Shown here: one piece after another, positions 3,150 to 53,403 of the stretch
How the letters are laid out: the number at the start of each line of letters is the position of its first letter
Numbering within the stretch: position 1 is the first letter of the stretch
From: a virus
Virus record (IMG/VR): IMGVR_UViG_3300045988_174992
Length of the DNA: 64,000 bases
Reading direction: 5' to 3' (one strand)
Program-made: the position numbers and the translations under genes
The notes under the pieces: generated by a model
What the model was told of the DNA's origin: nothing
Databases searched by the model: none
What the model saw: only the letters and a program-made list of their open reading frames with translations

Positions 3150-3511
3150 ATGAAGAATTTATCTAATTTCATATTAGAATCATTAAATAAAATGATTATA
3201 AGAAAATTTCAGATAAGATCATCAAGCAATTTAACATATCTTCTGTAAATGACAAAGGTTTTGTAGATGATTATGTAGAATATGTTGGAGACAATCTTAT
3301 CAGTAATGGAGAATGGCAAGATATTGATGATGATTTTGACAATTTTGTTGAAGAGATAATTAATGACATTAAGAAAGATGGAAATGATTCTGAATATGAT
3401 AAGTTCTCTGATTCCAATGACTACACATCAGAAGAATTCATAAAATCCAATAAGACTAATTTCTTGGATATATTTAGAAGCATTTATAACGGCTTTAAGA
3501 GTTTTGCATAG
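3150..3511 (+). pseudogene. frameshifted (or recoded) member of the MKxLxx[FY]-leader protein family
   Basis: ATG 3150 gives MKNLSNFILESLNK..., then TAA at 3246..3248. The -1 frame is open 3191..3511 (106 codons) with no usable start, and a terminator follows directly. Confidence 0.45.
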
Positions 3512-3515
3512 AAAA

Positions 3516-3550
3516 TTGGCTCGATCTTAAGATCGAGCCAATATTGTTTT
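3516..3550. terminator. bidirectional hairpin terminator
   Basis: Perfect palindrome TTGGCTCGATC-TTAA-GATCGAGCCAA (3516..3541) plus a T-run, between convergent genes. Confidence 0.7.
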
Positions 3551-4361
3551 AAGTAGTATAATAATTAACATTATATATACAATTATTATATGTAGATGTA
3601 ATAGTTTTATTTTTTGTGCCTGGGCCATCTATACTACAACCGTCTGGAATACTATAATTTCCGTAATTTGTTGTATATTTAAAATTAGGGGTTTCGTATC
3701 CATTCCATGTTAAACTGGTTAGTTCAAAATCAATTATAACAGAAGAATTATTGTCAATATATACTTTAATATGTGTATTTATAACATCTTGTCTTAATAA
3801 ATCATATACAGGAATTGGCATTTGGGCGTCATGGCTTTCTATCTGTCCACATACAGAAATATCATGACCATCTCCTGTTACCCAAATTCCACAATTAATA
3901 TTATAAGTACCAGTATTATCTACATAAGTATATTTATAATATGCAGGATTTAATCCTAATTTAGGATAATATGATGCTATAATTAAAGCATAGGAAATGT
4001 TACTTATTTGTGATTCATCTATTTTTTCCCAAGTATAACAAGAATCAGTATCTCCCTTTAAGTAATAATTTTCATAATTATTTCCATTTGATTCACTTGT
4101 TAAATGATGACTAATATATGAAGAATAAGGAGTAGACAATATTATACCACCAGGATCAGAAATATAAGTTGAATCTTGAATAAAGAAAGATGTCAATATT
4201 AATCCTGTTACATTTTTTGAATTTACATCTGAAACACTAATTGAATTATCAATATGTGGTGTTGTAAGAAATCTTCTAACATATATACTATTATTAGTAC
4301 CAGTATCGCTTTCATATTTCTTCATACTACCACTCTGAGTGTAGCATATTCCTGTAGCCAT
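3549..4361 (-). CDS. hypothetical protein (N/S/T/Y-rich)
   Basis: 270-aa ORF ending at the shared terminator. No motif recognised. Confidence 0.6.
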   Translation of the reverse strand: MATGICYTQSGSMKKYESDTGTNNSIYVRRFLTTPHIDNSISVSDVNSKNVTGLILTSFFIQDSTYISDPGGIILSTPYSSYISHHLTSESNGNNYENYYLKGDTDSCYTWEKIDESQISNISYALIIASYYPKLGLNPAYYKYTYVDNTGTYNINCGIWVTGDGHDISVCGQIESHDAQMPIPVYDLLRQDVINTHIKVYIDNNSSVIIDFELTSLTWNGYETPNFKYTTNYGNYSIPDGCSIDGPGTKNKTITSTYNNCIYNVNYYTT

Positions 4362-4788: not shown

Positions 4789-5991
4789 TTATTTAATTCT
4801 ATATTTAGCACCTATGATAGCATTAGCTGCAGCAAATGAACCAGTCATCTTCATCATTCTATCTTTCCAAGTGAATACAATACCTTCTGTAGAATTCAAC
4901 TTGTTTCCAAGTTTTTGAAGTCTTAACAATTGATCCTTAAGCTTATCTTTGTCTTCTTGAGTACCTTTCTCATCAACAAGCTTCTTAGTGGCTTCTATCT
5001 CATTCTTCAAATTGATTATTGCTTTGTCTTTGACTCCATCATTAATCAAACCAGATGTAAGTTCAATTACTTTATTTGACATATCTAAGAACAGGTCATC
5101 AATTGGTTCGATAACATCTTTAACATATTTCTTATAATCTTTCTTATCTATAGAAACAATTTCATCAGCATGTTCAGGGTAGCTCTTCTTCAATATTCTT
5201 ATATTTACACTCTTATCTGAATTGAACCATCGGTTGAAGAATGCATCCTTTTCAGTCATCCATTCTGGTGCTATAATTTCAAAACGTTTCTTTTTCCAAT
5301 CTTCTATAGTAGCATCTTTTCCTAAACCTTCAGATTTGAATAAGTCAATAACTTTCTTTTTATATTCATTAGCAAACTTATTGCTGTCTTTAGTAACTTG
5401 AATAATTATATTAGGTGTAAGCTTGGCTTTGTCATCCTTTTCTATAGCCTTTTGAATAATACCAAGTCCATCTTTGGTAACACTATCCTTTTTCCATTCA
5501 TCACCTTCTTTCTTATATACCCAAATATTATGGAAGTCAACCTGATCATCATCATAATACATGATATTAGTAGTACCTGATACTATACATTCACAGTTTA
5601 CTAACAATCTTGTATTAGGATCAGGATTGAAGAATTTGCTACCAATTCTTTTGAATATCTTTTCAAGTGTATTACCAGCAGATACAAATGCTTTTTGAAC
5701 GGTTGGTTTGTCTTTCCATTTTTCAATCATATCTTGGATAGTCATACCTCCACGTTCTGAATTCAAGTCACCTTTGTTTCTTATAAAAACTACTTCATCC
5801 TGATTATTCATAGATGCTTGTATGTTAGTACCATCTAATTTCTCTGTAGCATTAGATATCTTACCTCCAAACAAATCATCTATCAAATCAAGTAAATCTT
5901 GGCAGGTGAAGTCAGTTTCATCAATTACATGCATCATGTGACCACTAGCTCCACCTTCAAAGATTTGTACATATTGAGTTAAATTAATCAT
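4789..5991 (-). CDS. nucleotidyltransferase-superfamily ligase-like protein (RNA/DNA ligase candidate) with CTS-like leader
   Basis: TEKLDGTN looks like the KxDG adenylylation motif I. C-terminal EGIVF..MKMTG looks like motifs IV/V. N-terminus is MINLTQYVQIFE|GG. Confidence 0.45.
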   Translation of the reverse strand: MINLTQYVQIFEGGASGHMMHVIDETDFTCQDLLDLIDDLFGGKISNATEKLDGTNIQASMNNQDEVVFIRNKGDLNSERGGMTIQDMIEKWKDKPTVQKAFVSAGNTLEKIFKRIGSKFFNPDPNTRLLVNCECIVSGTTNIMYYDDDQVDFHNIWVYKKEGDEWKKDSVTKDGLGIIQKAIEKDDKAKLTPNIIIQVTKDSNKFANEYKKKVIDLFKSEGLGKDATIEDWKKKRFEIIAPEWMTEKDAFFNRWFNSDKSVNIRILKKSYPEHADEIVSIDKKDYKKYVKDVIEPIDDLFLDMSNKVIELTSGLINDGVKDKAIINLKNEIEATKKLVDEKGTQEDKDKLKDQLLRLQKLGNKLNSTEGIVFTWKDRMMKMTGSFAAANAIIGAKYRIK

Positions 5992-10582: not shown

Positions 10583-10614
10583 ATAATATAGAACTTTTTA
10601 AGTAAATTTCAAAA
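10583..10614 (-). promoter_or_regulatory. phage promoter, TTTGAAAT / TTCTATATT class
   Basis: Reverse complement reads TTTGAAAT-N13-TTCTATATTAT. Upstream of 10033..10554, directly after a terminator. Confidence 0.6.
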
Positions 10615-10620
10615 TAATGC

Positions 10621-10649
10621 AAAAAAGGATGATCTTAAGATCATCCTTT
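10621..10649 (-). terminator. rho-independent terminator
   Basis: AAAGGATGATC-TTAA-GATCATCCTTT followed by a T6 run on the minus strand. Confidence 0.75.
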
Positions 10650-10658
10650 CTACATATT

Positions 10659-13457: not shown

Positions 13458-14711
13458 TTAGTTACTGCCATTCATCATATTCATGATGATTTCTTTCTTT
13501 TTTGGAGTCATATTTTCTAATATCTTATCAGTTGCATCTTTCAAAGTCATCTTTACTGTTGATAGAGAAACACCTTCATTTTCCGCTAATTCTGATACTG
13601 ACATGCTGTAAGGCATGCCAACACCATATCGTTTCTTCATCATTCTCTTTGCAGTAGGTGACAATGGTTCTAACAATTCATCTATAGCATTCCTCAAGCT
13701 AGATATACGTTCTTCTTCATCTAACTTATTGTCTTCAATGATGAATTCATCATTAGCCATCTTGCTTATATCATTATCATGATAGCAATCATCTGTATAA
13801 GGATTGATTCCATCTAATCTTATTATATCAGCTAATTTTGTTCCTTTACCAGCATTAGGTACTCTTACAACTTGACCTTGTCTTGATATATCTACTAATA
13901 TGCTTGCACGAATCCATTGAAATGCAACAGAAGCAAATACTGCAGTCTTTACATTCTTATCAACCCAAGCATAGAATTCTGATGTATTGTTGAATCCATC
14001 GACAGGTAATTTGCTCAATGTTTCATCAAGAAGCTTATCATAAGTAAATCCTTCTTTTATTATGCTCTTAGCTTTTTCATAGCATATAGGACTATCCTCA
14101 TCACATTCTAGCTTTATCTTTTGCTTGATAGAATTTCTCAGATTTGCTTTAGATGTATCAAATCTGTCGAATGCCGCTATCAATCCTTCATTACCAGATT
14201 GAATCAAATCATCAAATGGCATACCAAGATTCTGATAACGTTTAGCACAGTTTACAACTAATTTAAGATTGTTCTTTAAGAATATATCTCTATTTTCATC
14301 ACAGAATACTAAATCATCACATTCATTTTGTGGATGCTCTATATATTGCTTCTTTACTTCATTGAAGTATCTGTCTATATTGTTGTCAAAAGTCTTATCA
14401 GTATACTGCTTTACTAAACTTGCTCTTGCTTTTTTCTTAGCGGCAAGATATAATGTAGTTGCATCTGTTCTAGAAATAAATGGAGCTACTCTCATAGCTT
14501 CATCTATATAAGTACAAATGATATCCTTTTCATGACAATCCCTTATAGATCTTATTTCATCCTTCATTAACTGAATCCAATCTGCGAGGAAATTATCTTC
14601 TTCTATACCTAACCAAGGGCCAAATACAGGATATTTCTTTTTCAATGCTTTTACAAAGTCAACAATACGCTTTGTATTTGTTTTATTTATAGTTACTTTA
14701 ATACGTGGCAC
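13458..14711 (-). CDS. sigma-70-family RNA polymerase sigma factor (phage-encoded)
   Basis: Region 2: [49 protein letters not shown] is region 2.3/2.4-like. C-terminal HTH: [27 protein letters not shown] start. Confidence 0.8.
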
Positions 14712-17756: not shown

Positions 17757-17774
17757 TAATGTTTTAACAATTAT

Positions 17775-17803
17775 AATATAGAAATTACAAATAAAATTTC
17801 AAA
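17775..17803 (-). promoter_or_regulatory. phage promoter, TTTGAAAT / TTCTATATT class
   Basis: Reverse complement reads TTTGAAAT-N12-TTCTATATTAT. Confidence 0.6.
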
Positions 17804-22628: not shown

Positions 22629-22657
22629 AATATAGAACAATCTTTCAGGATTTCAAA
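22629..22657 (-). promoter_or_regulatory. phage promoter, TTTGAAAT / TTCTATATT class
   Basis: Reverse complement reads TTTGAAAT-N12-TTCTATATT. Confidence 0.6.
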
Positions 22658-22671
22658 ATATATTCAAAAAT

Positions 22672-23979
22672 TTATTCAGCTGCCTTAATATTTATTCGTT
22701 CTTTTATTCTCTTCAGAATCTGAACTGTTGGTTCAATCTGCTCAATAATCTCATCCATAGGCTTGTATGCCATAGGAGACTCATCTAATGTTGACTTGTT
22801 GACAGAAGTTGAACAAACATCCTTCATTTCTTCGACAAATTCATCCATAGAAAGATTTGCCTTAGCAGCAGAACGTGACATCAATCGACCGGCACCATGA
22901 GGAGCAGTACAATTCCATTCAGCATTTCCTTTACCTACACAAATCAATACACCATCTCGCATATTGATAGGAATCACAAGTTCACGTCCATAAGCGGCAT
23001 TGACAGATCCTTTACGAATAATCATATCGTCAAAGTCAATGTAGTTATGCATTGTATTGATGACACGTGCCATAGAAGCACCTTTGACAATCTTAGTATA
23101 GATTTCTGTCATCTTATCCGAAATAAGCAAATGATTGTACTTGGCATAAGTCTGTGCAATTACCATATCAGTAAGATAGCCAATCAGATTCTTACCATTC
23201 AGATAGCCTGTTGGAACAGATGATACAAAGTCTTCCTTTGCATTCTTAATTCGCTCATTCCATTCTGACTTAGGATACATATCCTTTATCTTTTCAATAT
23301 GCTTTGCCCATTCAGAACTATCAACATGATAAGGCTTGTTTGCAACATTCATCCAGTACTTTGCTACCTTCAAACCAAAGTTGCGAGAACCACAATGTAT
23401 CATTATATATCCATTACCTTCGTCATCAGTATCATAAGACAAGAAATGATTGCCACCACCAGTAGTACCTAATGACTTCCAAAAAGTACCTTCATCCATA
23501 CCAATTCGGTTCAGCATATCGGAAATGTACTTTTCATTTACATTTACATTGTTTACAAAATTGGTTGTAGCAACAGCTCTGTCAATAGCAGTATTGCACA
23601 TCTTGTAAAACATCTTCTCATCAGCAATCTTCTTATCATAAATAGTGAATCCAGTAGGAATATCCTTCTTCCATCGATGTTCAAGCAATGCATAAGATTC
23701 CTCTGGACATGGCTTTGACATCTTGATGCAAGTTACCTGACAACCAATATCAACACCTACATGGCTTGGATTTACCATTGGATTATCCTTATCAATAGTA
23801 GAAGAGAAGCCAATTGTTATCGACTGCCCCAAGTGGATATCCGGCATTATTCGTATTTTCTGATCCTTGAATGCAGGACAGTCACAGATACTGTAAACCA
23901 TCTTCAATGCATCTTCTTCAACTGTCTTTGCAAAAATCTTGCAATCCTTATTGTACTTTCCAATTATATTGTATTCCAT
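22672..23979 (-). CDS. rtcB: RNA-splicing ligase RtcB (3'-phosphate/5'-hydroxyl RNA ligase)
   Basis: GVDIGC, GGGNHF, HCGSRNFG and APHGAGR motifs in RtcB order. 435 aa. Confidence 0.85.
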   Translation of the reverse strand: MEYNIIGKYNKDCKIFAKTVEEDALKMVYSICDCPAFKDQKIRIMPDIHLGQSITIGFSSTIDKDNPMVNPSHVGVDIGCQVTCIKMSKPCPEESYALLEHRWKKDIPTGFTIYDKKIADEKMFYKMCNTAIDRAVATTNFVNNVNVNEKYISDMLNRIGMDEGTFWKSLGTTGGGNHFLSYDTDDEGNGYIMIHCGSRNFGLKVAKYWMNVANKPYHVDSSEWAKHIEKIKDMYPKSEWNERIKNAKEDFVSSVPTGYLNGKNLIGYLTDMVIAQTYAKYNHLLISDKMTEIYTKIVKGASMARVINTMHNYIDFDDMIIRKGSVNAAYGRELVIPINMRDGVLICVGKGNAEWNCTAPHGAGRLMSRSAAKANLSMDEFVEEMKDVCSTSVNKSTLDESPMAYKPMDEIIEQIEPTVQILKRIKERINIKAAE

Positions 23980-24284: not shown

Positions 24285-24382
24285 AGGATTCACCTGCTAA
24301 GCGCCTGGATCACACAGGAAGCGGAAAAATATACTTCAGTATGTTCTATAAAAGGGACTCATTTGAGAGTCCCTGTGTGAAT
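24285..24382 (-). repeat. conserved helix-closed ~90-100-nt element, copy 1 (candidate ncRNA or miniature mobile element)
   Basis: The minus strand reads ATTCACACAGGGA...TTCCGCTTCCTGTGTGATCCAGGCGCTTAGCAGGTGAATCCT. TCACACAGG (24310..24318) pairs with CCTGTGTGA (24372..24380). Confidence 0.7.
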
Positions 24383-25224: not shown

Positions 25225-25253
25225 AATATAGAACAAAACATGTTTTTTTCAAA
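25225..25253 (-). promoter_or_regulatory. phage promoter, TTTGAAAT / TTCTATATT class
   Basis: Reverse complement reads TTTGAAAA-N12-TTCTATATT. Confidence 0.55.
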
Positions 25254-25273: not shown

Positions 25274-25310
25274 AAAAAAAAAAAAATGGAACAATCAATT
25301 GATTGTTCCA
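25274..25310 (-). terminator. rho-independent terminator
   Basis: TGGAACAATC-AATT-GATTGTTCCA followed by a T13 run on the minus strand. Confidence 0.8.
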
Positions 25311-25317
25311 CTTCTAT

Positions 25318-26965: not shown

Positions 26966-26996
26966 ATTAAAAAGAGATGCTTGTTTTAAGCATCTC
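26966..26996 (-). terminator. rho-independent terminator
   Basis: GAGATGCTT / AAGCATCTC hairpin around the polymerase stop codon, with a T-run on the minus strand. Confidence 0.6.
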
Positions 26997-28278
26997 CAAA
27001 TAAGTCAAATTGTACTGTACCATTGCTATTCAACAATGGGAATTTCATTACTTCAAGAAATCTGTTCAATGGATCAAGAACATTCTTTTGCCATTGAACC
27101 GCTTTATCACATGGTGGTGCCCAAGATGGAAGCTCACCAGATGGATATCCAAAGTAATCTGTTTCAGCCTTCTTTGTACTTCCTAATCTTATATTGTAAT
27201 ACTTTACTTTCTGTCCTTGTACAATACGAAGATTTCTCTGATTGTTCTTCTTTGCCAAATAGTTATATCTTGCTGCACATTTTACTGATACTGGAGTCTG
27301 TTTTGCAAACATCAAATCTTCTTCATCACACAATACATATTTCTTGTAATTACCAACATTAATTGACTGTGAAATATCTTCAATAGGAGCAGCCCAGAAT
27401 TTCTTCTTCCATTTATCCAATTTACTGTTGAAATAGAGAATATATTCTTCTTTTGACATTTTACCAGTATCATAAACCAATGACCTTGTCATATCAGTAA
27501 TGATTTCCTTTGCAAGCTTAGGAGAAGTTGTCTTAATAAGTTCAATTCCAACACCAGTAATCTTTGAAGGTGTAAACCATTTGCCTTTTGAATAAGACAT
27601 GGCCTTCAAATATTTCTTTTTCTTCAATGTAATTGTTGCTTCAGAAACAGTTTCCAATTCAAACTCATGAATTGAATGACAATGACGTGGATTGTACATA
27701 TCATTCATCCATTCTGTATTCTGCTTATCAAGAAACTCCTTATTGAATTTCAATATCCATTTGATCTTGTCATCTCGTTCTGGAATACTTGCTAAAGTTT
27801 CTGGTGTCCAACATCTGAAGAAATCACCATATTGGGTATACACAGAATCTGTATCTGAGTATTCACTAATATGCTGTTGCCTAAACCAATCATGCTTTGA
27901 CTCATCAAGTTCAAATCCAAATTTTTCCCACAAATCCTTTCTTTGCCAAATATCTTCATGGAAAAACTCTTCAAGTCTATTCCACATGAATTTTGTCAAA
28001 TTTCTTGCCTCGCAGGTAATATCGGAAGCGCACCTCATGTCGTAGAAATAGAAGAATCTGTTTGCACATGCACCGTACGCCGAGTTATTTAAAAGCTTAC
28101 TGCATAATTCCAACATTGAATTCTCTTCAATAAGATGTTCCAAGTCCTCTTTATATGCTTTAAGCTCTTCCAATGAAAGTGAATATATGTCCCTTCCATC
28201 AAGCTTATCTTTCATAAATTGCTGACACTGCTCAGAGAAAACTTTTTTTTCTCCATATTTCTCTACATTATATTCCAT
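26986..28278 (-). CDS. family-B DNA polymerase, C-terminal (palm/thumb) fragment only
   Basis: KLLNNSAYGACANRFFYFYD is motif B as in T4 gp43 (KLLINSLYGA). YSDTDSVY is motif C. No Exo motifs or motif A. The ORF starts ~60 aa before motif B. Confidence 0.8.
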   Translation of the reverse strand: MEYNVEKYGEKKVFSEQCQQFMKDKLDGRDIYSLSLEELKAYKEDLEHLIEENSMLELCSKLLNNSAYGACANRFFYFYDMRCASDITCEARNLTKFMWNRLEEFFHEDIWQRKDLWEKFGFELDESKHDWFRQQHISEYSDTDSVYTQYGDFFRCWTPETLASIPERDDKIKWILKFNKEFLDKQNTEWMNDMYNPRHCHSIHEFELETVSEATITLKKKKYLKAMSYSKGKWFTPSKITGVGIELIKTTSPKLAKEIITDMTRSLVYDTGKMSKEEYILYFNSKLDKWKKKFWAAPIEDISQSINVGNYKKYVLCDEEDLMFAKQTPVSVKCAARYNYLAKKNNQRNLRIVQGQKVKYYNIRLGSTKKAETDYFGYPSGELPSWAPPCDKAVQWQKNVLDPLNRFLEVMKFPLLNSNGTVQFDLFGDA

Positions 28279-28280
28279 TA

Positions 28281-29348
28281 TTAAATTCTATTTATATATT
28301 CTTTTACTTGATTAATAGTAAAAAATTCAAGATAATTCAAATTATTTCTTTTTGCACATTCTCTTTTCTCAACATCTTTAATAGTCCATGTTGTTATAAT
28401 TTGTGGTAATTTCTTCCAATGTTTATATTTCCTTTTAAGCCTTTCTAATATTACTTGATCTTTAACTGAATTTTTATCATAGGGATTACTACCATGTGTG
28501 TAAAATCCTTGATATTCTATAAACAAATCTTTTGATGGTATGTAAAAGTCACATTTATATGGGTACCTGATCTTATCATAATATTGCCTTATTATATCAG
28601 GATATATTTCTTTCAATAAATTATAACATTCATTTTCTGATTTAGAATTTCTTTTATCCAAAGTACCATTCTTCCTCATTGTAAGATATCCCTTTTTTTG
28701 TACTTCTTTAGATATAGAACTTGCAAACTTTTTGTATTCTTCTGTTTTAGCATAATTATCTACACCATAATGTTTCAAAAAAGTTTGTTTTTTCTTTTCT
28801 GTTATCTTGTTTCTATCTTCTTTAGAAATATATGACCATCTTTCTTTTTGAATATCCGATAAATATGTTTCTCCATATTTATTTTTTATCAATTCAGGAA
28901 TTTTCTTTCTAAACTCTTTGTTACCTAATATAGAATTTGAACCATATTTCTTTTTACAAGTTTCTTTTCTCTTATCTATAAACTCTTTTACACTTAATGT
29001 AGATTTGACCCCATATTTATCTATAATGGATTGCCTCATGTTTTGCAATTTTTCTGGGTCATGTTGTTGACAATAAGATGAACAATATTTTTTCAGACCA
29101 TCTCTATTCCCATAAGACTTTATTTCATTTATGAAAGGAATTCTCTTTCCACAAAGTTTGCAAGTTAATGGTTTATCCAAACCATGCTTTATCAAATAAA
29201 ATGCCTCATATATATTATCTACATTTTCAAATCTAGTTTTAAGATATTCTATTTCTTCTGGAAGTACTTTGCCATATTTTGCTTTTCTATATAGCATGTT
29301 AGTATTCTTCCAGTATTTTGATATCAATACTTCATCTGTTACCTCCAT
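28281..29348 (-). CDS. free-standing endonuclease candidate (Vsr/DUF559-like PD-(D/E)XK C-terminal domain)
   Basis: C-terminus SKSENECYNLLKEI...YKCDFYIPSKDLFIEYQGFYTHG fits the S..E...L....DF.....L.IE..G..H pattern. N-terminal CxxC plus four KYG[VSE] repeats. Confidence 0.5.
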   Translation of the reverse strand: MEVTDEVLISKYWKNTNMLYRKAKYGKVLPEEIEYLKTRFENVDNIYEAFYLIKHGLDKPLTCKLCGKRIPFINEIKSYGNRDGLKKYCSSYCQQHDPEKLQNMRQSIIDKYGVKSTLSVKEFIDKRKETCKKKYGSNSILGNKEFRKKIPELIKNKYGETYLSDIQKERWSYISKEDRNKITEKKKQTFLKHYGVDNYAKTEEYKKFASSISKEVQKKGYLTMRKNGTLDKRNSKSENECYNLLKEIYPDIIRQYYDKIRYPYKCDFYIPSKDLFIEYQGFYTHGSNPYDKNSVKDQVILERLKRKYKHWKKLPQIITTWTIKDVEKRECAKRNNLNYLEFFTINQVKEYINRI

Positions 29349-29792: not shown

Positions 29793-29854
29793 AATTCTTT
29801 CTTAATTTAAATTGTTAAAAATATTTGTTTGTTGTATATATTAAATACGTTTAT

Positions 29855-29883
29855 AATATAGAAAAGCTTCAAAAAATTTCAAA
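29855..29883 (-). promoter_or_regulatory. phage promoter, TTTGAAAT / TTCTATATT class
   Basis: Reverse complement reads TTTGAAAT-N12-TTCTATATTAT. Confidence 0.6.
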
Positions 29884-30739: not shown

Positions 30740-32070
30740 AACTTTTAGAAAATTTTTATGATATTTCTATTTTTATAAATAATTGAAATTAATTTATATA
30801 AAATACTATATTAAATTATAAGATATAAATTTATTCCTAATATATGAAACTTAAGCTAACACAACAAATTATCATAGGGCAGAAGCATAAGAATTATGCT
30901 TCACTTGATATACTGTGTTGGCTTTCTAAGAATCTTTATAACCAAGCTTTGTATCAGATAAGACAGCAATATAGTAAAGACAAGACTTATCTTGGTTATT
31001 CTAAGCTATATAGACTATTATATGATACAAAGCAACCAGATTATTTTGCTTTACCATATACTCAATGTAGCCAGCAAATACTACGTTTAGTTGATAAAAC
31101 ATATACTTCATTCTTTAAAGGAATAAAGTCAGCTAAGAATAAAGGAAAGAAAGTCAGACTTCCTAAGTATAAAGATAAAGAAAATGGAAGGTATGTATTT
31201 GTATATACCAGTCAATGTATCAAGGTAAAGGATGGCATTCTAAGACTTAAAGTGAACAAGACTGATTTCATTTACTTTAATTGTGACAAGGAAGATGTAT
31301 GCCAAGTAAGAATAGTACCTAAAGGAAATCATATAGTAGTAGAAATAATATATCAAGTAGAATATGAACTGAAGAAAGATAATGGAAATTATGCTAGCAT
31401 AGATCTTGGAATTGACAATATAGTTACTTTAGCTTCTAACTCAGCTCAATCCGTTCTTTATAATGGAAGACCATTGAAAGCAATAAATCACTTTTACAAC
31501 AAGAGAAAAGCTGAGTTGCAATCTAAGGTAAAGACTAAGTCAACTAAGAGAATAAAGCGTTTGAATGGTAAGAGAAACAGAAAGGTAAAAGACTTCATGC
31601 ATAAGCTAAGTCATGCCATAGTATGTTACATGGAATCAAACAACATAAATACATTGATTGTAGGAAAGAATGTTGGTTGGAAAGACAGTATCAAGCTAGG
31701 GCATGTTGTAAATCAAAACTTTGTTTCAATACCATACAATATGCTAATACAGATGCTAGAGTATAAGTGTAAGCTAAAAGGTATCACATTCATTGTGGTA
31801 AATGAAGCATATACTTCAAAGTGTAGTTTCATGGACAATGAAAATATTTGCAAGCACAAAGTATATGCTGGATCTAGAATAAGAAGAGGATTGTTTGTAA
31901 CAAAGAATGGACTTAGACTAAATGCAGATATAAATGGAGCTTTGAATATAATGGTACTAGGTTGTACTAAGATAAATGTAAAACGTGATGCTCTAGTAAT
32001 AGAGCCAGCGAATATGAGGTTTGTAGTGAACCCAATTAGATTGACTTTAAGTCAATAGAATGAAATTTTA
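30740..32070 (+). mobile_element. TnpB-only IS200/IS605-like element (boundaries approximate)
   Basis: tnpB sits alone between the minus-strand promoter (30702..30730) and the first fibre gene. No tnpA seen. Ends not defined. Confidence 0.35.
30844..32058 (+). CDS. tnpB: TnpB (IS200/IS605-family OrfB, RNA-guided RuvC-like nuclease)
   Basis: RuvC triad in order: ASIDLGIDN (D), VVNEAYTSKCS (E), LNADINGALNI (D). 404 aa. The TSKCSF...RRGLF subtype lacks the second CxxC pair. Confidence 0.85.
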   Translation: MKLKLTQQIIIGQKHKNYASLDILCWLSKNLYNQALYQIRQQYSKDKTYLGYSKLYRLLYDTKQPDYFALPYTQCSQQILRLVDKTYTSFFKGIKSAKNKGKKVRLPKYKDKENGRYVFVYTSQCIKVKDGILRLKVNKTDFIYFNCDKEDVCQVRIVPKGNHIVVEIIYQVEYELKKDNGNYASIDLGIDNIVTLASNSAQSVLYNGRPLKAINHFYNKRKAELQSKVKTKSTKRIKRLNGKRNRKVKDFMHKLSHAIVCYMESNNINTLIVGKNVGWKDSIKLGHVVNQNFVSIPYNMLIQMLEYKCKLKGITFIVVNEAYTSKCSFMDNENICKHKVYAGSRIRRGLFVTKNGLRLNADINGALNIMVLGCTKINVKRDALVIEPANMRFVVNPIRLTLSQ

Positions 32071-35965: not shown

Positions 35966-36250
35966 ATGGCAAATACAACATTTCCTATTCATAAACTATT
36001 TAGAGTATATGAAACATTAGACCAGTTTGATGCAGAAGCAAATCACCCAGAAAATAAGATATGCTTCATCAAAGATAAGAGAATAATCTATGCTAATGGG
36101 GTTGAATATACCAATGAGCAGATGTATAATGATAATATAACTGATGATATCAAAGATGCTGCTAAATTCAAGACTGTTTATAATGCATTATTAGATGAAC
36201 TGAAGAACAGAAACTATATGGAGTTATCCAAAGATGGTGAAAATATTTAA
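35966..36250 (+). CDS. stand-alone fibre N-terminal adaptor module
   Basis: 94 aa. LFRVYETLDQFDAEANHPENKICFIKDKRIIYANGVEY matches the N-termini of the three LRR fibre genes but lacks an LRR part. Confidence 0.5.
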   Translation: MANTTFPIHKLFRVYETLDQFDAEANHPENKICFIKDKRIIYANGVEYTNEQMYNDNITDDIKDAAKFKTVYNALLDELKNRNYMELSKDGENI

Positions 36251-37433
36251 AAACTATGATACATTATCCCAATTCAATGATGAATCTATACACCCAGAAA
36301 ACAAGATATGTTTGATAAAAGATAAAGGTGTAATATATTCAAATGGTGTACAGTATTCACATTCTAAAATGCATATAATACAAGATATTGGAGATTCAGA
36401 TAACATAGTAGATAAGTTTAATGAATTGAGAAAAGGTTTATTAGAATCAAATCTAATGGCAGCTAGGACACCACATACTCTCATTTACTGGACAGGAGAT
36501 TCTAATACTATAGATATTAGTGGTACTACATATACAGCTGAACCAGATAAAGTAAACATAGATGGGGTAGAATACTACCAGTTAAAATTAGATAAAGATT
36601 TAAATAATAGTTTTAGTAATAATACTTTTACTAATTTAATATTTAAAGATGTTGATACAAGTAATGTTACTAATATGAATAATATGTTCGGTTATTGCAA
36701 TGCTCTTACTTCTTTGTATGTGTCTGAATTTGATACAAGTAATGTTACTAATATGGCTAATATGTTTTATTATTGCGAGGCTCTTACTTCTTTAGATGTA
36801 TCTAAATTTGATACAAGTAATGTTACTAATATGTTTAATATGTTTGGTAGATGCTGTGCTCTTACTTCTTTAGATGTATCTAAATTTGATACAAGTAAAG
36901 TTACTAATATGAGTAATATGTTCAATAATTGCAGTTCTCTTACTTCTTTGGATGTATCTAAATGGGATACAAGTAAAGTTACTGGTATGTATAGTATGTT
37001 TAATTATTGCATATCTATTACTTCTTTAGATGTATCTAAATTTGATACTAGTAAAGTTACTGATATGTCTAGTATGTTTCAACATTGCAGATTACTTACT
37101 TCTTTTGATGTGTCAAATTTTAATACAAGTAATGTTACTAATATGAATACTATGTTCTCTTCTTGCAGTGCTCTTACTTCTTTGGACGTATCTGGGTGGG
37201 ATACAAGTAATGTTATTTATATGGGTTATATGTTCAGGAATTGCTGGGCTCTTACTTCTTTGGACATATCTGGATGGGATACAAGTAATGTTACTAATAT
37301 GAATAGTATATTCTCTGGTTGCAGTTCTCTTAAAACAATAAGAATGGTAGGTTGTTCACAGACTACTATAGATAAGATAAAAGCACAACTATCTACAGAT
37401 GGTATAACTGGATGTACTATTGTAACAGAATAA
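36234..37433 (+). CDS. BspA/DUF285-type leucine-rich-repeat fibre (receptor-binding) protein, paralog 1
   Basis: About 10 repeats of F..C..LTSLDVS.FDTS.VTNM..MF. Conserved N-terminal module and a C-terminal module ending LKTIRMVGCSQTTIDKIKAQLSTDGITGCTIVTE. Confidence 0.7.
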   Translation: MVKIFKNYDTLSQFNDESIHPENKICLIKDKGVIYSNGVQYSHSKMHIIQDIGDSDNIVDKFNELRKGLLESNLMAARTPHTLIYWTGDSNTIDISGTTYTAEPDKVNIDGVEYYQLKLDKDLNNSFSNNTFTNLIFKDVDTSNVTNMNNMFGYCNALTSLYVSEFDTSNVTNMANMFYYCEALTSLDVSKFDTSNVTNMFNMFGRCCALTSLDVSKFDTSKVTNMSNMFNNCSSLTSLDVSKWDTSKVTGMYSMFNYCISITSLDVSKFDTSKVTDMSSMFQHCRLLTSFDVSNFNTSNVTNMNTMFSSCSALTSLDVSGWDTSNVIYMGYMFRNCWALTSLDISGWDTSNVTNMNSIFSGCSSLKTIRMVGCSQTTIDKIKAQLSTDGITGCTIVTE

Positions 37434-37470
37434 ATATAACAGAATAAAATTTTATATATAAAAAGAAATC

Positions 37471-38217
37471 ATGGCTAAATTATTTAGAAATTACAATACA
37501 TTGGTGGAATATGAAGCAGACACAAATAAACCTGTAAACACAGTTTGTTTCATTAAAGATGCAAAGGTCATCTATGTAGATGGCATACGATATTCATATA
37601 AGCAACTTGACTATCTACCACCTGCTATTAATGAAGCAGAAGCATTAGAATATATGGGTAAGATTATTAAGAATGCCCAGGAAGTAGGATTGATTGGTAT
37701 ACCAGTACCTAAACTAGTACCTGGTATATACTGGACAGGAGATTCTAATATTATAAGTATTAGTGGTACAGATTATACAGCTGAATCTGATAATATAACT
37801 ATAGATGGTGTAGAATACTATCAGTTAAAATTGGATAAAGATTTAGATAATGATTTTTACAACTTTAATTATAATTATTTTACTAATTTAATATTTAAAG
37901 ATGTTGATACAAGTAATGTTACTAATATGAGTAATATGTTCGAAGGTTGTTGGGATCTTACTTCTTTGGATGTTAGTAATTTTGATACAAGTAATGTTAC
38001 TGATATAGGATTTATGTTTAGTGATTGTGGTTCTCTTACTTCTTTAGATATGTCTGGATGGGATATAAGTAACGCCATCAAAATGAACAAAATGCTCACT
38101 GGTTGTAGTGCTCTTAAAACTATCAGAATGGTAGGTTGTTCACAGACTACTATAGATAAGATAAAAGCACAATTATCTACTGATGGTATAACTGGTTGCA
38201 CTATTGTAACAGAATAA
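37471..38217 (+). CDS. BspA/DUF285-type LRR fibre protein, paralog 2
   Basis: Same N- and C-terminal modules, with about 3 LRR units. Confidence 0.7.
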   Translation: MAKLFRNYNTLVEYEADTNKPVNTVCFIKDAKVIYVDGIRYSYKQLDYLPPAINEAEALEYMGKIIKNAQEVGLIGIPVPKLVPGIYWTGDSNIISISGTDYTAESDNITIDGVEYYQLKLDKDLDNDFYNFNYNYFTNLIFKDVDTSNVTNMSNMFEGCWDLTSLDVSNFDTSNVTDIGFMFSDCGSLTSLDMSGWDISNAIKMNKMLTGCSALKTIRMVGCSQTTIDKIKAQLSTDGITGCTIVTE

Positions 38218-38250
38218 ATTATAACAGAATAATTATAACAGAATAAAATC

Positions 38251-39225
38251 ATGCCGAAAATATTTAGAAACTACAATACATTATCTCAATTCAATACTGA
38301 ATCCACACATCCAGAAAACAAGATATGTTTCATTAAAGATAATGGAGTAATATATTCAAATGGTGTACAGTATTCACCTTATAAAATGGACACTATAGCT
38401 AATATAGAAGATTCAGATAACATAGTAGATAAGTTTAATGAATTGAGAAAAGGTTTATTAGAATCAAATCTAATGGAAGCTAGAACACTACATACTGTCA
38501 TATACTGGACTGGAGATTCTAATACTATAAACATTAGTGGTACTACATATACAGCTGAACTAGATAAAATAAATATAGATGGTGTAGTATACTATCAGTT
38601 AAAATTGTATAAAGATTTAGATAATAATTTTTATAAATTTAGTAATAATACTTTTGCTAATTTAATATTTAAAGATGTTGATACAAGTAAAGTAACTAAT
38701 ATGAATAATATGTTCCATTATTGCAATGCTCTTACTTCTTTGGATGTATCTAAATTTGATACTAGTAAAGTTACTAACATGTCATGGATGTTTGAATATT
38801 GCATGTCTCTTACTTCTTTAGATTTGAGTACATGGGATACTAGTAAGGTTACTAATATGAATGCTATGTTCCTTTATTGTAGTGCTCTTACTTCTTTGGA
38901 TTTGAGTGGATTTGATACTAGTAAAGTTACTGATATGAGTTTTATGTTCAGTAATTGCAGTTCTCTTACTTCTTTGGATTTGAGTGGATTTGATACTAGT
39001 AAAGTTACTGATATGAGTTTTATGTTCAGTAATTGCAGTTCTCTTACTTCTTTGGATTTGAGTGGATGGGATACAAGTAATGTTAATAATATGCGTAATA
39101 TGTTCAGTGGTTGTAGTGCTCTTAAAACAATCAGAATGGTAGGTTGTTTGCAGACTACTATAGATAAGATAAAAGCACAACTATCTAGTAATGGTATAAC
39201 TGGATGCACTATTGTAACAGAATAA
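38251..39225 (+). CDS. BspA/DUF285-type LRR fibre protein, paralog 3
   Basis: Same modules, about 6 LRR units including a perfect 78-bp tandem duplication. Confidence 0.7.
   Translation: MPKIFRNYNTLSQFNTESTHPENKICFIKDNGVIYSNGVQYSPYKMDTIANIEDSDNIVDKFNELRKGLLESNLMEARTLHTVIYWTGDSNTINISGTTYTAELDKINIDGVVYYQLKLYKDLDNNFYKFSNNTFANLIFKDVDTSKVTNMNNMFHYCNALTSLDVSKFDTSKVTNMSWMFEYCMSLTSLDLSTWDTSKVTNMNAMFLYCSALTSLDLSGFDTSKVTDMSFMFSNCSSLTSLDLSGFDTSKVTDMSFMFSNCSSLTSLDLSGWDTSNVNNMRNMFSGCSALKTIRMVGCLQTTIDKIKAQLSSNGITGCTIVTE
38887..39042 (+). repeat. perfect 2 x 78-bp tandem duplication (one LRR unit)
   Basis: 38887..38964 and 38965..39042 read identically, each encoding LTSLDLSGFDTSKVTDMSFMFSNCSS. Confidence 0.85.
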
Positions 39226-39250: not shown

Positions 39251-39276
39251 AGAAGAGGAATCTTAAGATTCCTCTT
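39251..39276. terminator. bidirectional hairpin terminator
   Basis: GAAGAGGAATC-TTAA-GATTCCTCTTC between convergent genes. Overlaps the stop of 39263..39754. Confidence 0.65.
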
Positions 39277-39754
39277 CCAATTTCTTTTTCAATTCTTCAC
39301 ATACCTTATGGTTTTCTTCTTCCATCTTCTTGATAGTTTCTGGATTTCCATCAAATGACTCAATTGTCTTTTTCATATCCTTTTTCAAATCTTCATATAG
39401 ATCTGGATTGATCTTAGTCCAATTCTTCCTAGGATCTTTCTTTCCGGTGTATTCCCAATCATCAAGAATTGTTTGAATAATATTGATTCTACACATTTCC
39501 CATTCATATTCATTCAATTCTTCAAACAATTCATCAACTTCTGAATTCAACTTCCACAATGTATCACCTTCAGAATCTGATGGAAACACATCCTTTGGTG
39601 TACAGATGCAAATCTGGCGAATCTTATTCTTTATTCCATCAATATTTTTTGAACATTCTTCTTTTGCTCGTTCAAAATCACTATAAGAAGTATATTGACA
39701 ACCTGGTAACCAAACTTCTCCTTTATAAGCTTTAATGCAATGATCTACTGACAT
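39263..39754 (-). CDS. hypothetical protein
   Basis: 163-aa ORF with an AAGGAGA Shine-Dalgarno-like sequence 7 nt upstream of the ATG. Confidence 0.65.
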   Translation of the reverse strand: MSVDHCIKAYKGEVWLPGCQYTSYSDFERAKEECSKNIDGIKNKIRQICICTPKDVFPSDSEGDTLWKLNSEVDELFEELNEYEWEMCRINIIQTILDDWEYTGKKDPRKNWTKINPDLYEDLKKDMKKTIESFDGNPETIKKMEEENHKVCEELKKKLEEES

Positions 39755-40879: not shown

Positions 40880-40896
40880 TTTTATTTAACGATTAT

Positions 40897-40925
40897 AATA
40901 TAGAAAAAAGCCTTAATTTTTCAAA
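40897..40925 (-). promoter_or_regulatory. phage promoter, TTTGAAAT / TTCTATATT class
   Basis: Reverse complement reads TTTGAAAA-N12-TTCTATATTAT. Overlaps the stop of 40913..41152. Confidence 0.5.
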
Positions 40926-41152
40926 TTTTTCCTAAAATTTTTCAATTTATTTTTATTGTAATACTTTAGTATCTGATAAAATGCATACAATCCACCAACA
41001 AAACATAAGAAGATTATAATAGGGATCCAAAGTGGTGCAGTTACCCACCACCAAGACCAATCAATAACATTAGTCAACTTAAGTACAAGAAATACCAAGA
41101 ACAAGACACTTGAAAAGGATAATCCACTTGTATAATTGCTATTATTTTCCAT
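40913..41152 (-). CDS. small two-helix membrane protein
   Basis: 79 aa with two hydrophobic segments and a basic tail. Confidence 0.55.
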   Translation of the reverse strand: MENNSNYTSGLSFSSVLFLVFLVLKLTNVIDWSWWWVTAPLWIPIIIFLCFVGGLYAFYQILKYYNKNKLKNFRKNLKN

Positions 41153-41181
41153 TTGATTTTATATGTTTAAATTTGTTAAAT

Positions 41182-41270
41182 ATTCACACAGGGACGTTAA
41201 AATTATCTTAACTGATAGAATATACTGAAATATGTTATTCCGCTCCCTGTGTGACCCAGGCACATTCCTA
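41182..41270 (+). repeat. conserved helix-closed element, copy 2
   Basis: ATTCACACAGGGACG...TTCCGCTCCCTGTGTGACCCAGGCAC. Orientation is opposite to copy 1 relative to the flanking minus-strand genes. Confidence 0.7.
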
Positions 41271-41280
41271 TAGTTATTTT

Positions 41281-41739
41281 TCAAAAATGCTTAGCAAGTT
41301 CTGTATTTGAAAAGAACATCATATTGACACATTTAGCCATCCATTCAACTAAACCTTCATTACATGACTCTTCAAAATACTGACCAGATTCAAGCATGAT
41401 GTGAATACACTCATGTACAAATGTTTGCTTTATCTGTTCTGGTTTCAATGGCTTACCAGATGGAGTAGTCAATGACAAGTTGATTACCTGTTCTGATAAG
41501 TTGCTGTTACCAAAGATCCAGCAAGAAGTATCGTAATCAGAATATACTTTATCATGAAAACAAACATCAATGGTTTCACCAAACAAGTTGAACTGAAAAT
41601 CTTCATACTTCTTCTGTTTCTTCATATTTCTATTTGTATTAGTATTCTTTACATTATTGTTCTTTGAAGCTCTGCAAGGTTTGTTGAATATGATTTTCTC
41701 ATCAGGATTCAACACATCTTTTGCAAACTCAGTGTCCAT
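41281..41739 (-). CDS. putative zinc metallopeptidase (HExxH)
   Basis: FVHECIHIMLESG contains HExxH. 152 aa. Confidence 0.4.
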   Translation of the reverse strand: MDTEFAKDVLNPDEKIIFNKPCRASKNNNVKNTNTNRNMKKQKKYEDFQFNLFGETIDVCFHDKVYSDYDTSCWIFGNSNLSEQVINLSLTTPSGKPLKPEQIKQTFVHECIHIMLESGQYFEESCNEGLVEWMAKCVNMMFFSNTELAKHF

Positions 41740-41788: not shown

Positions 41789-41818
41789 AATATAGAAAAA
41801 AATGCAGGAAATTTCAAA
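41789..41818 (-). promoter_or_regulatory. phage promoter nested in a terminator
   Basis: Reverse complement reads TTTGAAAT-N13-TTCTATATT. The -35 box lies in the loop of hairpin 41802..41833. Confidence 0.55.
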
Positions 41819-41837: not shown

Positions 41838-42674
<837 letters not shown>

Positions 42675-47893: not shown

Positions 47894-47907
47894 GAGTTAA
47901 TTACTGA

Positions 47908-47934
47908 ATGGAGAACTTAAGTTCTCCATTTTTA
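47908..47934 (+). terminator. rho-independent terminator
   Basis: ATGGAGAAC-TTAA-GTTCTCCAT followed by TTTT. Confidence 0.75.
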
Positions 47935-50459: not shown

Positions 50460-50705
50460 ATGAAAAAATTAAGTGAATTGGTAAATGAAAAGCTATCTGA
50501 TATAGAAGGTAAATGGGATCCACCAGAAGGATTGTTTGCAAAGAACAATCCTAGAGAGATAGCTCAAATACTTTTAGATGCTTCAGATTCAGAAGGTCAA
50601 GCAATGAAAAGACTTGTATTCTATATGAACAGAGCAGGAGAAGATTGTCCTAATAAAACAGTTTTGAATAAAGTAAAAGATATATTGAGAAGCAATACAA
50701 AATGA
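50460..50705 (+). CDS. hypothetical protein with CTS-like leader
   Basis: MKKLSELVNE|KLS. 81 aa. Confidence 0.6.
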   Translation: MKKLSELVNEKLSDIEGKWDPPEGLFAKNNPREIAQILLDASDSEGQAMKRLVFYMNRAGEDCPNKTVLNKVKDILRSNTK

Positions 50706-50731
50706 GGAAGACTTAAGTCTTCCTCATTTTT
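50702..50731. terminator. bidirectional hairpin terminator
   Basis: ATGAGGAAGAC-TTAA-GTCTTCCTCAT followed by TTTT, between convergent genes. Confidence 0.75.
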
Positions 50732-52637: not shown

Positions 52638-52666
52638 CATATAGAACAATCTTCTAAAATTTCAAA
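52638..52666 (-). promoter_or_regulatory. phage promoter (distal of a tandem pair)
   Basis: Reverse complement reads TTTGAAAT-N12-TTCTATATG. Confidence 0.5.
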
Positions 52667-53225
52667 ATATTGGCAAAAAAGTTTGGCCTAAATTGAATTT
52701 TATTGTATTAAGAAGCATTCTTGTATGTTGATATTGCTCTTCTTTAATATCAAACAATGAAATGCAATTTGACTCATCATCAAACAATTCTTGGATAGAC
52801 TTCCAGATAGCCGTTGCATGGTCAAAAGCCAAATCATCTTTCCTTAGACCTACCAATGATACCCATTGTACTGTTGATGCATCATCTTTTGCTTTTATCA
52901 AACCTTCAAAATCATCATGAACTGTATCAGCATATACAATAGAAATGCATCTTTCTCGTGGATCTCTTCCTTCTTTAGTAAGAGCACAAACTTGAAACAT
53001 ATAACTCAAGCTCAAGTTTGTCTCTTCCTTAAGTTCACGAATAGCGGCACTCATAGCAGATCTGTCTTCTGGATCTAAGAATCCACCAGGAAGAGCTAGC
53101 TTTCCTTTGAATGGTTCATTCTTACGAGTGATGAGCAACACCTTTGGATTATTTGGATCCTTTAAATTGAAAATCACGTTATCTACTGTAACTGCATAAT
53201 GTACGTATTCGTATGTATAACTCAT
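52662..53225 (-). CDS. Nudix hydrolase (ADP-ribose pyrophosphatase-like)
   Basis: Nudix box GGFLDPEDRSAMSAAIRELKEETNL. The track start at 53261 lies inside the promoter -10 box, so ATG 53225 (MSYTYEY) is preferred. Confidence 0.75.
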   Translation of the reverse strand: MSYTYEYVHYAVTVDNVIFNLKDPNNPKVLLITRKNEPFKGKLALPGGFLDPEDRSAMSAAIRELKEETNLSLSYMFQVCALTKEGRDPRERCISIVYADTVHDDFEGLIKAKDDASTVQWVSLVGLRKDDLAFDHATAIWKSIQELFDDESNCISLFDIKEEQYQHTRMLLNTIKFNLGQTFLPIF

Positions 53226-53249
53226 AATTATTATTTTTTGTTCGAATAT

Positions 53250-53278
53250 AATATAGAACAATTTTTAAAAATTTCAAA
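53250..53278 (-). promoter_or_regulatory. phage promoter, TTTGAAAT / TTCTATATT class
   Basis: Reverse complement reads TTTGAAAT-N12-TTCTATATT. Confidence 0.6.
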
Positions 53279-53305: not shown

Positions 53306-53403
53306 ATTCACACAGGTAGCGTAAAATTTTCTTAGGTTATAATTTATACTCCTAAACAATTTTCCGCTCCCTGTGTGACCCAGGCGCTTTACTAGTGAAT
53401 CCT
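53306..53403 (+). repeat. conserved helix-closed element, copy 3
   Basis: ATTCACACAGGTAGCG...TTCCGCTCCCTGTGTGACCCAGGCGCTTTACTAGTGAATCCT. Confidence 0.7.

Follow-up and report, generated by a model that had tools for sequence, protein, structure and literature searches.

An element between two minus-strand genes

The short space between the minus-strand genes at 40913..41152 and 41281..41739 contains a conserved element that can close into a hairpin, which raises the question of what this element does and on which strand it acts. It lies in a stretch of 64 kb of phage DNA with about 30% G+C (the window, which is the whole stretch that was analysed). In the initial annotation it was read as a plus-strand element, antisense to its neighbours, and as the same helix-closed element as the one at 24285..24382. 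The homology was confirmed by alignment, since the sequence aligns with the reverse complement of 24285..24382, and by a covariance model built from the copies of relatives, which matched 41182..41279 with 105 bits. The alignment of this copy, hereafter copy 2, with 43 relatives contains no indels. The parts of copy 2 and its immediate neighbours are as follows.

41184..41276, proposed functional strand minus (plus in the initial annotation): whole element, copy 2, family locus 0a (covariance model and alignment)
41184..41194, no strand: distal arm TCACACAGGGA, partner of 41244..41254
41195..41239, no strand: AT-rich interior of 45 nt, 'type A', of constant length in the family and without a consistent fold
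41240..41263, no strand: GC-rich box CCGCTCCCTGTGTGACCCAGGCAC, containing the arm 41244..41254 and the 'C-CCA' 41255..41258
41264..41276, no strand: variable tail, in which the family GAA is lost (family alignment)
41172..41183, minus: tract after the hairpin, AUAUUUAACAAA, 4 U in 10 nt, the weakest U-tract in the family
41281..41739, minus: upstream gene in the sense of the mRNA, 152 aa, weak SprT-like match, stop codon 41281..41283
40913..41152, minus: downstream gene, 79-aa membrane protein (ORF list and protein matching)
41789..41817, minus: phage promoter motif TTGAAA-N17-TATATT, upstream of the 152-aa gene (motif scan)
40895..40924, minus: next phage promoter motif, TTGAAA..TTCTATATTATA, at the end of the 79-aa gene (motif scan)

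The closing helix pairs TCACACAGGGA (41184..41194) with TCCCTGTGTGA (41244..41254) over 11 bp without a mismatch, so that the helix that was first described as 10 bp long is real and one base pair longer than counted. Directly 3' of it on the plus strand follow C41255 and CCA (41256..41258), and the distance from TCACACA to this CCA is 75 nt, both in agreement with the earlier description, as is the divergence from copy 1 of the tail after CCAGGC. Copy 2 also misses the GAA (alignment columns 92-94) that is otherwise near-invariant in the family. Its fold energy is -24 kcal/mol (z = -4.6 compared to shuffles), and the 11-mer arm, allowing at most one mismatch, occurs 6 times versus 2.0 expected. 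On the minus strand the box reads GUGCCUGGG-UCACACAGGGA-GCGG and lies 5' of the hairpin loop. The end of the tail is 4 nt from the stop codon of the 152-aa gene, and the start codon of the 79-aa gene follows 32 nt past the hairpin, with no promoter motif in between. The ORF at 41838..42674 carries a (GTTCTG)x15 tandem repeat at 42071..42159, which encodes a Glu-Pro / Glu-Ser repeat.

The pair TTGATT (41153..41158) and TTAAAT (41176..41181), separated by a 17-nt spacer, had been pointed out, as weak evidence, as a sigma-70-like pair that could drive independent transcription of the plus strand. The pair is present, but a role as a promoter is not supported. The second position of the -10 hexamer is a T instead of an A, the pair is absent from the list of the promoter scan, and a transcript would begin inside the 5' arm. 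Moreover, it is found only at this orthologous locus, where in the related contigs L070-L072 it is located 39-78 nt away through inserted modules, and the other ten loci of the family share no common upstream motif.

A repeat family with eleven conserved loci

Scanning the 64-kb window with the covariance model gave three copies with scores of 105, 102.5 and 96 bits, and, barring reverse-strand echoes of these three, no other match in the window scored above 13 bits. The two other copies are:

24285..24382, minus: copy 1, family locus 8, inside the operon leading to RtcB; one of only two 'sense' loci
53306..53403, plus: copy 3, family locus 3, between the gene of a 116-aa membrane protein and the Nudix gene; antisense like copy 2

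On the minus strand the hairpin of copy 3 is followed by AUAUUUUUUG and then by a promoter motif at 53277..53248.

More than 150 copies of the element were present in related contigs. A 22-nt pattern taken from the 3' side retrieved 47 copies in nine IMG/VR contigs of 167-294 kb, an arms-only pattern returned the same contigs again, plus variants, and a metagenome scan found many further copies in human-gut assemblies, about 65 of which were confirmed by the covariance model. Among GenBank phages there was no DNA match to the element, in either near or distant mode, and the only matches in bacterial genomes came from two 'Romboutsia' metagenome bins that carry the same phage loci. The contigs in question from these two CONCOCT MAGs (L045-L058, CALFLM01..., CALESE01...) are most likely mis-binned phage contigs, probably binned by their low G+C, and the host label is not trustworthy. 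Judged by these searches, the family is confined to a single clade of uncultured jumbo phages of the human gut.

The family is a repeat of fixed length (~93 nt) with 11 conserved intergenic loci per ~290-kb genome. Clustering of the flanks resolved the copies into 11 orthologous loci with one copy each per genome, and assigned the window copies 2, 3 and 1 to loci 0a, 3 and 8, respectively. An alignment of 44 copies over 98 columns contained no gaps and revealed a layout in which an A-rich flank precedes the 5' arm (columns 3-13); then come 45 nt of variable AT-rich interior, the box (columns 59-82), nine variable bases, and GAA. The box, CCGC-TCCCTGTGTGA-CCCAGGCGC, was near-invariant in 114 distinct copies, an apparent invariance that is inflated by retrieval patterns anchored on the box and for which the arm-only search controls in part; the parts of the box outside the arm were conserved although this arm-only search did not demand them. 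The C-CCA after the helix was conserved in at least 112 of the 114 copies. The arms measure 11 bp, those of 'type B' copies 19 bp, and the 'types' of interior have been swapped between loci. At the three loci of the family that lie between convergent genes the distal arm is degenerate.

Across about 15 closely related genomes, none of the 11 loci turned up empty, and each pair of flanks was at least 73 nt apart. Differences in intergenic length between relatives are due to tail variants and to a separate 39-nt module (0-5 tandem copies). In relatives this module, ATGAACATCNCTTNCAGNTCTGTTCAAGAACTNAAGTTA, adjoins the element in either orientation, and its number differs between otherwise near-identical genomes (sites outside the window: L070-L072, about 3559..3640; L074/L075, about 3459..3516; L041, 1291..1581). 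Loci 2 and 9 are the only ones whose left flanks differ in gene content between genomes. We conclude that this phage repeat family is real, conserved and previously uncatalogued.

The phage itself has no near DNA match among GenBank phages over the window, which encodes a family-B DNA polymerase fragment, a helicase, a sigma-like protein (13458..14711), RtcB, a Nudix protein, TnpB and structural proteins. The polymerase shares less than 30% identity with its counterparts in Bacteroidota jumbo phages and metagenomic megaphages; the polymerase, a gp52-like topoisomerase and other replication genes are of the T4 type. Shine-Dalgarno sequences were not found at the genes of this phage. At 26986..29348 on the minus strand, the C-terminal half of the polymerase forms a separate 430-aa ORF with a homing-endonuclease-like ORF (355 aa, DUF7487) directly upstream, and the N-terminal half was not located nearby. 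A TnpB-type gene (OrfB_IS605 and Cas12f1-like TNB domains) occupies a short plus-strand island at 30844..32058, and no TnpA was seen near it. The window also holds a set of RNA-repair-type genes on the minus strand, for the RtcB ligase (22672..23979), a weakly RNA-ligase-like protein (4789..5991) and a Nudix hydrolase (52662..53261). Two of the three window copies adjoin RtcB or Nudix, an association that is not kept across the family. Three consecutive DUF285/leucine-rich-repeat genes at 36234..39225 on the plus strand are built from 78-nt tandem repeats.

Polarity and placement relative to genes, promoters and terminators

The orientation of copy 2 antisense to its neighbours, as first reported, proved to be that of the family majority. 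At 9 of the 11 loci the gene on the tail side lies on the opposite strand (6 co-directional, 3 convergent), with its stop codon 0-40 nt from the element, while loci 2 and 8, the latter represented by window copy 1, are in the reverse orientation inside operons. This 9:2 split corresponds to a one-sided binomial p of only about 0.03. Since most loci are antisense to their neighbours, a function on the mRNA strand of these neighbours is indicated. On this strand the order is GC-rich box, hairpin and U-rich tract, and at all loci the 10 nt after the hairpin contain 4-8 U on the box-first strand (5-8 U if copy 2 is set aside) versus 0-1 on the other. The A-rich 5' flank of the element is conserved as well. 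The box-first strand folds slightly more stably than the other, and the wobble-type variants are mostly on the transcribed strand.

The phage has a well-defined promoter-like class, TTGAAA-N16-(TTC)TATATT(ATA), that was found at about 13 window sites upstream of genes on the coding strand, and the motif TTCTATATTNTA occurs 20 times in the window versus 9 times expected. At the canonical terminators in the window, a perfect palindrome has CTTAAG (UUAA tetraloop) at its centre, and several of these terminators are bidirectional between convergent genes. The sites are:

10612..10583, 17802..17773, 22656..22629, 25252..25225, 29882..29853, 40924..40895, 41817..41789 and 53277..53248, minus: promoter motif
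30783..30812, plus: promoter motif
3515..3542, 10622..10651, 39251..39278, 47906..47931 and 50699..50730: CTTAAG-loop terminators

These terminators often lie directly before a promoter, for example at 10651..10622/10612 and 25315..25282/25252. The element shares this position, because at loci 1, 3 and 6 (partly also at locus 0b) the same TTGAAA-N16-(TTC)TATATT promoter follows 19-68 nt past the hairpin on the box-first strand. Beside the element at loci 4 and 7, which are convergent, there is a canonical bidirectional terminator, and here the distal arm has decayed (TTGTGTCAGGGA and TCACTAGGAAA) while the box is intact. Decay of the arm would be expected if the job of the helix is termination and had been made redundant. 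Overall, the element is found after a stop codon, the position of a terminator, at 9 of the 11 loci; copy 2 is less clear, since the next gene lacks a promoter.

The hairpin and the replacement of its stem in a sister phage

In the family, the closing helix P1 is 89% paired, only one pair shows a two-sided change, and most of the variation breaks pairs. Covariation is almost absent, since the helix hardly varies. The 45-nt interior shows neither a consistent fold nor covariation. The gap between the arms amounts to 49 nt, and a standard terminator scan made no call at the site of copy 2.

A sister phage (IMG/VR 3300001525_000092), whose gp52-like protein and RtcB are 87% and 80% identical, carries two elements, one after the gp52-like gene, at the orthologue of locus 0b, and one after RtcB. 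At least two copies of the sister-phage cassette were located:

L177, 2905..3040: sister-phage cassette, GC-rich stem TTTAGGCGCCGCTGGCGGCC...
L201, 3306..3440: sister-phage cassette, GC-rich stem TTTAGGCGCCGCTGGCGGCC...

In the sister elements the parts are arranged alike, the loop (TATAAATTAT) and the lead-in are homologous, and a U-rich tract comes next, with the same promoter after it. Their stems are wholly different and GC-rich, yet still complementary (GGCGCCGCTGGCGGCC.../...GGCCGCCAGCGGC), and there is no CCA after the stem. Replacement of both arms with their complementarity kept argues for selection on the hairpin itself, and we take it as the strongest argument for such selection. 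The site of window copy 1, locus 8, is empty in the sister phage, and after RtcB the sister phage has an element and this clade has none. Because the sister phage lacks the element at locus 8, cassettes are gained and lost at boundaries over longer times.

Alternative explanations

The initial annotation had drawn attention to the N-CCA directly after the helix, and the element could be regarded as an independent small RNA of the plus strand with a tRNA-like acceptor minihelix, formed by a 7+4 bp stem followed by N-CCA. The conservation of the 11-bp helix and C-CCA in at least 112 of 114 copies, and the presence in the window of genes for RtcB, an RNA-ligase-like protein and a Nudix protein, would fit such an RNA; nevertheless, we consider this highly improbable. 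ARAGORN found no tRNA or tmRNA gene in the window, the Rfam 15 covariance models gave no match at gathering score and only two chance-level matches at E <= 10, which also speaks against Y-RNA-like, ribozyme and SRP families, and a cloverleaf is absent, there being no D arm or T arm. Conservation continues unbroken past the CCA, and because the GGCGC that follows is as conserved as the helix, the CCA is not the signature of a 3' end. Furthermore, neither a promoter nor a terminator is common to the loci on the plus strand, three loci have lost the helix, and in the sister family no CCA follows the stem. There is a slim chance that the element itself contains a plus-strand promoter, composed of TTAAAA (columns 16-21), an 18-nt spacer and TATACT (columns 40-45), at 41197..41226 in the window. 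The box would then be a conserved 5' leader, and the RNA would be antisense to the adjacent 3' end in most cases and sense at loci 2 and 8. Both hexamers are the most conserved columns of the interior, the spacer length is invariant, the region just past TATACT is the least conserved, and the scan lists the pair with 9/12 matches; the 5' arm would also be dispensable, matching the convergent loci. However, matches of such quality are not commoner than in shuffled sequence, the pair is unlike the phage's own class with its 16-nt spacer and TTCTATATT, and an invariant C at position 5 of the hexamer is unlike a -10 element. Such a promoter also implies long antisense RNAs without a terminator at 9 of the 11 loci, and it leaves the complementarity of the arms unaccounted for. 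Matches to a putative wider class of TTAAAA-N18-TATACT promoters were likewise not above chance.

Another possibility, which we regard as unlikely, is that the element is a palindromic repeat comparable to MITE, REPIN or Correia sequences, either selfish or spreading passively, which would be copied to intergenic sites by recombination or by an unseen transposase and tolerated at gene ends, with its terminator-like behaviour being incidental. The element is multi-copy, has inverted arms of 11-19 bp and occurs in both orientations, and the exchange of interior 'types' between loci indicates gene conversion. The empty locus 8 in the sister phage and the sister-only element after RtcB could also be explained in this way, as could the location of loci 2 and 9 at the border of regions of differing gene content, and there is a TnpB gene in the window (30844..32058). 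What weighs against a selfish repeat is that none of the 11 loci is empty in about 15 close genomes, that there is a single copy per locus without any target-site duplication or duplicated flank seen, and that the polarity of the flanks is conserved. In the part of the window proteins that was scanned, TnpB stands alone without a TnpA/RAYT-type enzyme, and the arms are missing from the ends of the TnpB element. The box never occurs alone as a 'target': a 71-bp MITE inserted in a pre-existing 'target' repeat was rejected because CCAGGCRC without arms gave only 4 chance matches, in or probably in coding sequence. The box may instead be a recognition site at the DNA level, in which an asymmetric 24-bp box is bound by a phage protein and the second arm is a weaker inverted half-site, serving as a signal for replication or recombination or, like a stoperator, as a roadblock. 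This reading, which seems rather improbable to us, would explain why the box is invariant including the bases outside the helix, why it persists at loci whose opposite arm has decayed, and why covariation within the family is absent, and it is compatible with the intergenic location, the orientation bias (9:2) and the fixed spacing. In the sister phage, however, both arms have changed and yet are complementary, which is more easily explained by selection for a hairpin; the conserved polarity of the U-tract is left unaccounted for, and no candidate binding protein was identified.

Several other readings were considered and rejected. Protein coding is contradicted by the box-first frame, which is open through 'type A' and is interrupted by a stop in 'type B' at the same loci, and by the invariance of wobble positions in the box; an extension of the 152-aa gene by a -1 frameshift is possible only in the sequence of this genome. 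A complementary partner of the box elsewhere in the window was not found, none of its 10-mers being repeated on the plus or the minus strand. The T4-type late promoter TATAAATA in the loop is not enriched, with 20 window occurrences versus 15 expected. A likeness of the box to T7/K11-type or sigma-54 promoters was dropped, since the spacing does not fit and a phage RNA polymerase is not evident.

A proposed PeSL-like cassette on the mRNA strand

The reading that we favour, to which we give an even chance on the basis of the comparisons above, is that the family of copy 2 is a PeSL-like terminator/attenuator cassette functioning on the mRNA strand. The cassettes would be polar intergenic hairpins with their action on the strand that carries the flanking genes, at copy 2 the minus strand. 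On that strand each copy begins a few bases past a stop codon with a short variable lead-in, followed by the invariant GC-rich box (GCGCCUGGG-UCACACAGGGA-GCGG), the AT-rich interior, the complementary arm and an A/U-rich tract. The RNA hairpin is predicted to terminate or attenuate transcription of the upstream gene, or at least to insulate and stabilise its 3' end, and it would thereby mark the boundaries of transcription units, like the stem-loop half of the T4-type PeSL cassettes. The family, its polarity, its placement and the exchange of its stems are directly seen in the sequences, and termination or attenuation is inferred from them. Since the box has stayed conserved at loci with a decayed hairpin, a further partner that recognises its sequence is probable, for example a protein or the transcription complex itself.

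Copy 2 has the weakest U-tract of the family and a promoterless gene 32 nt downstream, both of which count against a terminator, so that here a partial terminator (attenuator) or a processing or stability hairpin is more likely than a full stop. The 49-nt 'loop', the two inverted loci, the modest significance of the 9:2 split and the near-zero covariation also count against a terminator, and termination does not account for a box that is invariant, even in 9 nt beyond the stem, opposite an arm that varies. It is conceivable, though we think it unlikely, that the eleven cassettes form a genome-wide switch controlled by a factor, with the box as candidate site of a lineage-specific phage protein that turns the terminators off, or on, at a set time of infection. 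This would be a timed read-through resembling nut sites or stoperators, in which box and factor co-evolve and the cassettes double as recombination linkers. The box itself has been kept where the hairpin decayed and replaced as a unit in the sister phage.

Closest in kind to the element is the stem-loop part of the promoter-early stem-loop (PeSL) motifs of T4-type phages (Arbiol et al. 2010, PMC2839356; Comeau et al. 2014, PMC4122927). PeSL cassettes are conserved, repeated intergenic sequences of ~100 bp, in which a stem-loop terminator or attenuator follows the stop codon of the upstream gene and adjoins a sigma-70-like promoter for the next gene, and they have been implicated in the exchange of flanking genes (PMC2839356, PMC4122927). 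The element described here is also an intergenic stem-loop of ~100 bp, present at 11 loci in a T4-related genome, with a TTGAAA-N16-TATATT promoter after it at several loci and with two loci bordering variable gene content. However, the PeSL unit includes the promoter, an AT-rich UP region and a Shine-Dalgarno sequence, whereas the element comprises only the hairpin and the GC-rich box, the promoter being separate and present at some loci only, in a phage without Shine-Dalgarno sequences. The hairpin interior of 45-49 nt, the two inverted loci and the absence of indel polymorphism of the element among close relatives are further differences. An intrinsic terminator resembles the family in having a GC-rich stem and a U-rich tract on the transcribed strand, directly past a stop codon, but at copy 2 the tract holds only 4 U in 10 nt, and the loop of such terminators is usually 3-8 nt instead of 49 nt. 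In the element, moreover, not just the shape but the sequence is conserved over 11 loci, including 9 nt 5' of the stem, and the phage separately has sequence-diverse terminators with CTTAAG loops.

The bacterial REP/REPIN, ERIC and Correia sequences are extragenic imperfect palindromes of ~70-150 nt, whose copies number tens to hundreds and can have either orientation. Often they are transcribed together with the 3' end of a gene, where they affect termination or mRNA stability, and they are mobilised by RAYT or IS transposases or are associated with TA target duplications. The element is likewise a short, extragenic, multi-copy imperfect palindrome found in either orientation, but it occupies 11 fixed phage loci, and neither a mobilising transposase, in the part of the window proteins that was scanned, nor TA duplications were found. 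The stoperators of cluster A mycobacteriophages are repressor-binding sites of 13-14 bp without a hairpin, in temperate phages. Like these, the element is an asymmetric conserved site in short intergenic regions whose orientation tracks the direction of transcription; unlike these, it has a hairpin, which is conserved across the stem swap. With tRNAs and tRNA-like RNAs the element has in common a terminal helix followed by N-CCA and a distance of about 75 nt to the CCA, but it has no D, anticodon or T arms, and its conservation continues past the CCA.

The finding bears on no long-standing open question. If the cassette reading is true, the elements would map the transcription-unit boundaries of an uncultured ~290-kb human-gut phage lineage without a close cultured relative, and the PeSL idea, that repeated cassettes insulate and possibly shuffle genes, would reach a distant T4-related branch without Shine-Dalgarno sequences. 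The stem swap in the sister phage may be seen as a natural compensatory experiment on a regulatory module of ~100 nt, and the invariant box would provide a concrete handle for finding a new phage regulator.
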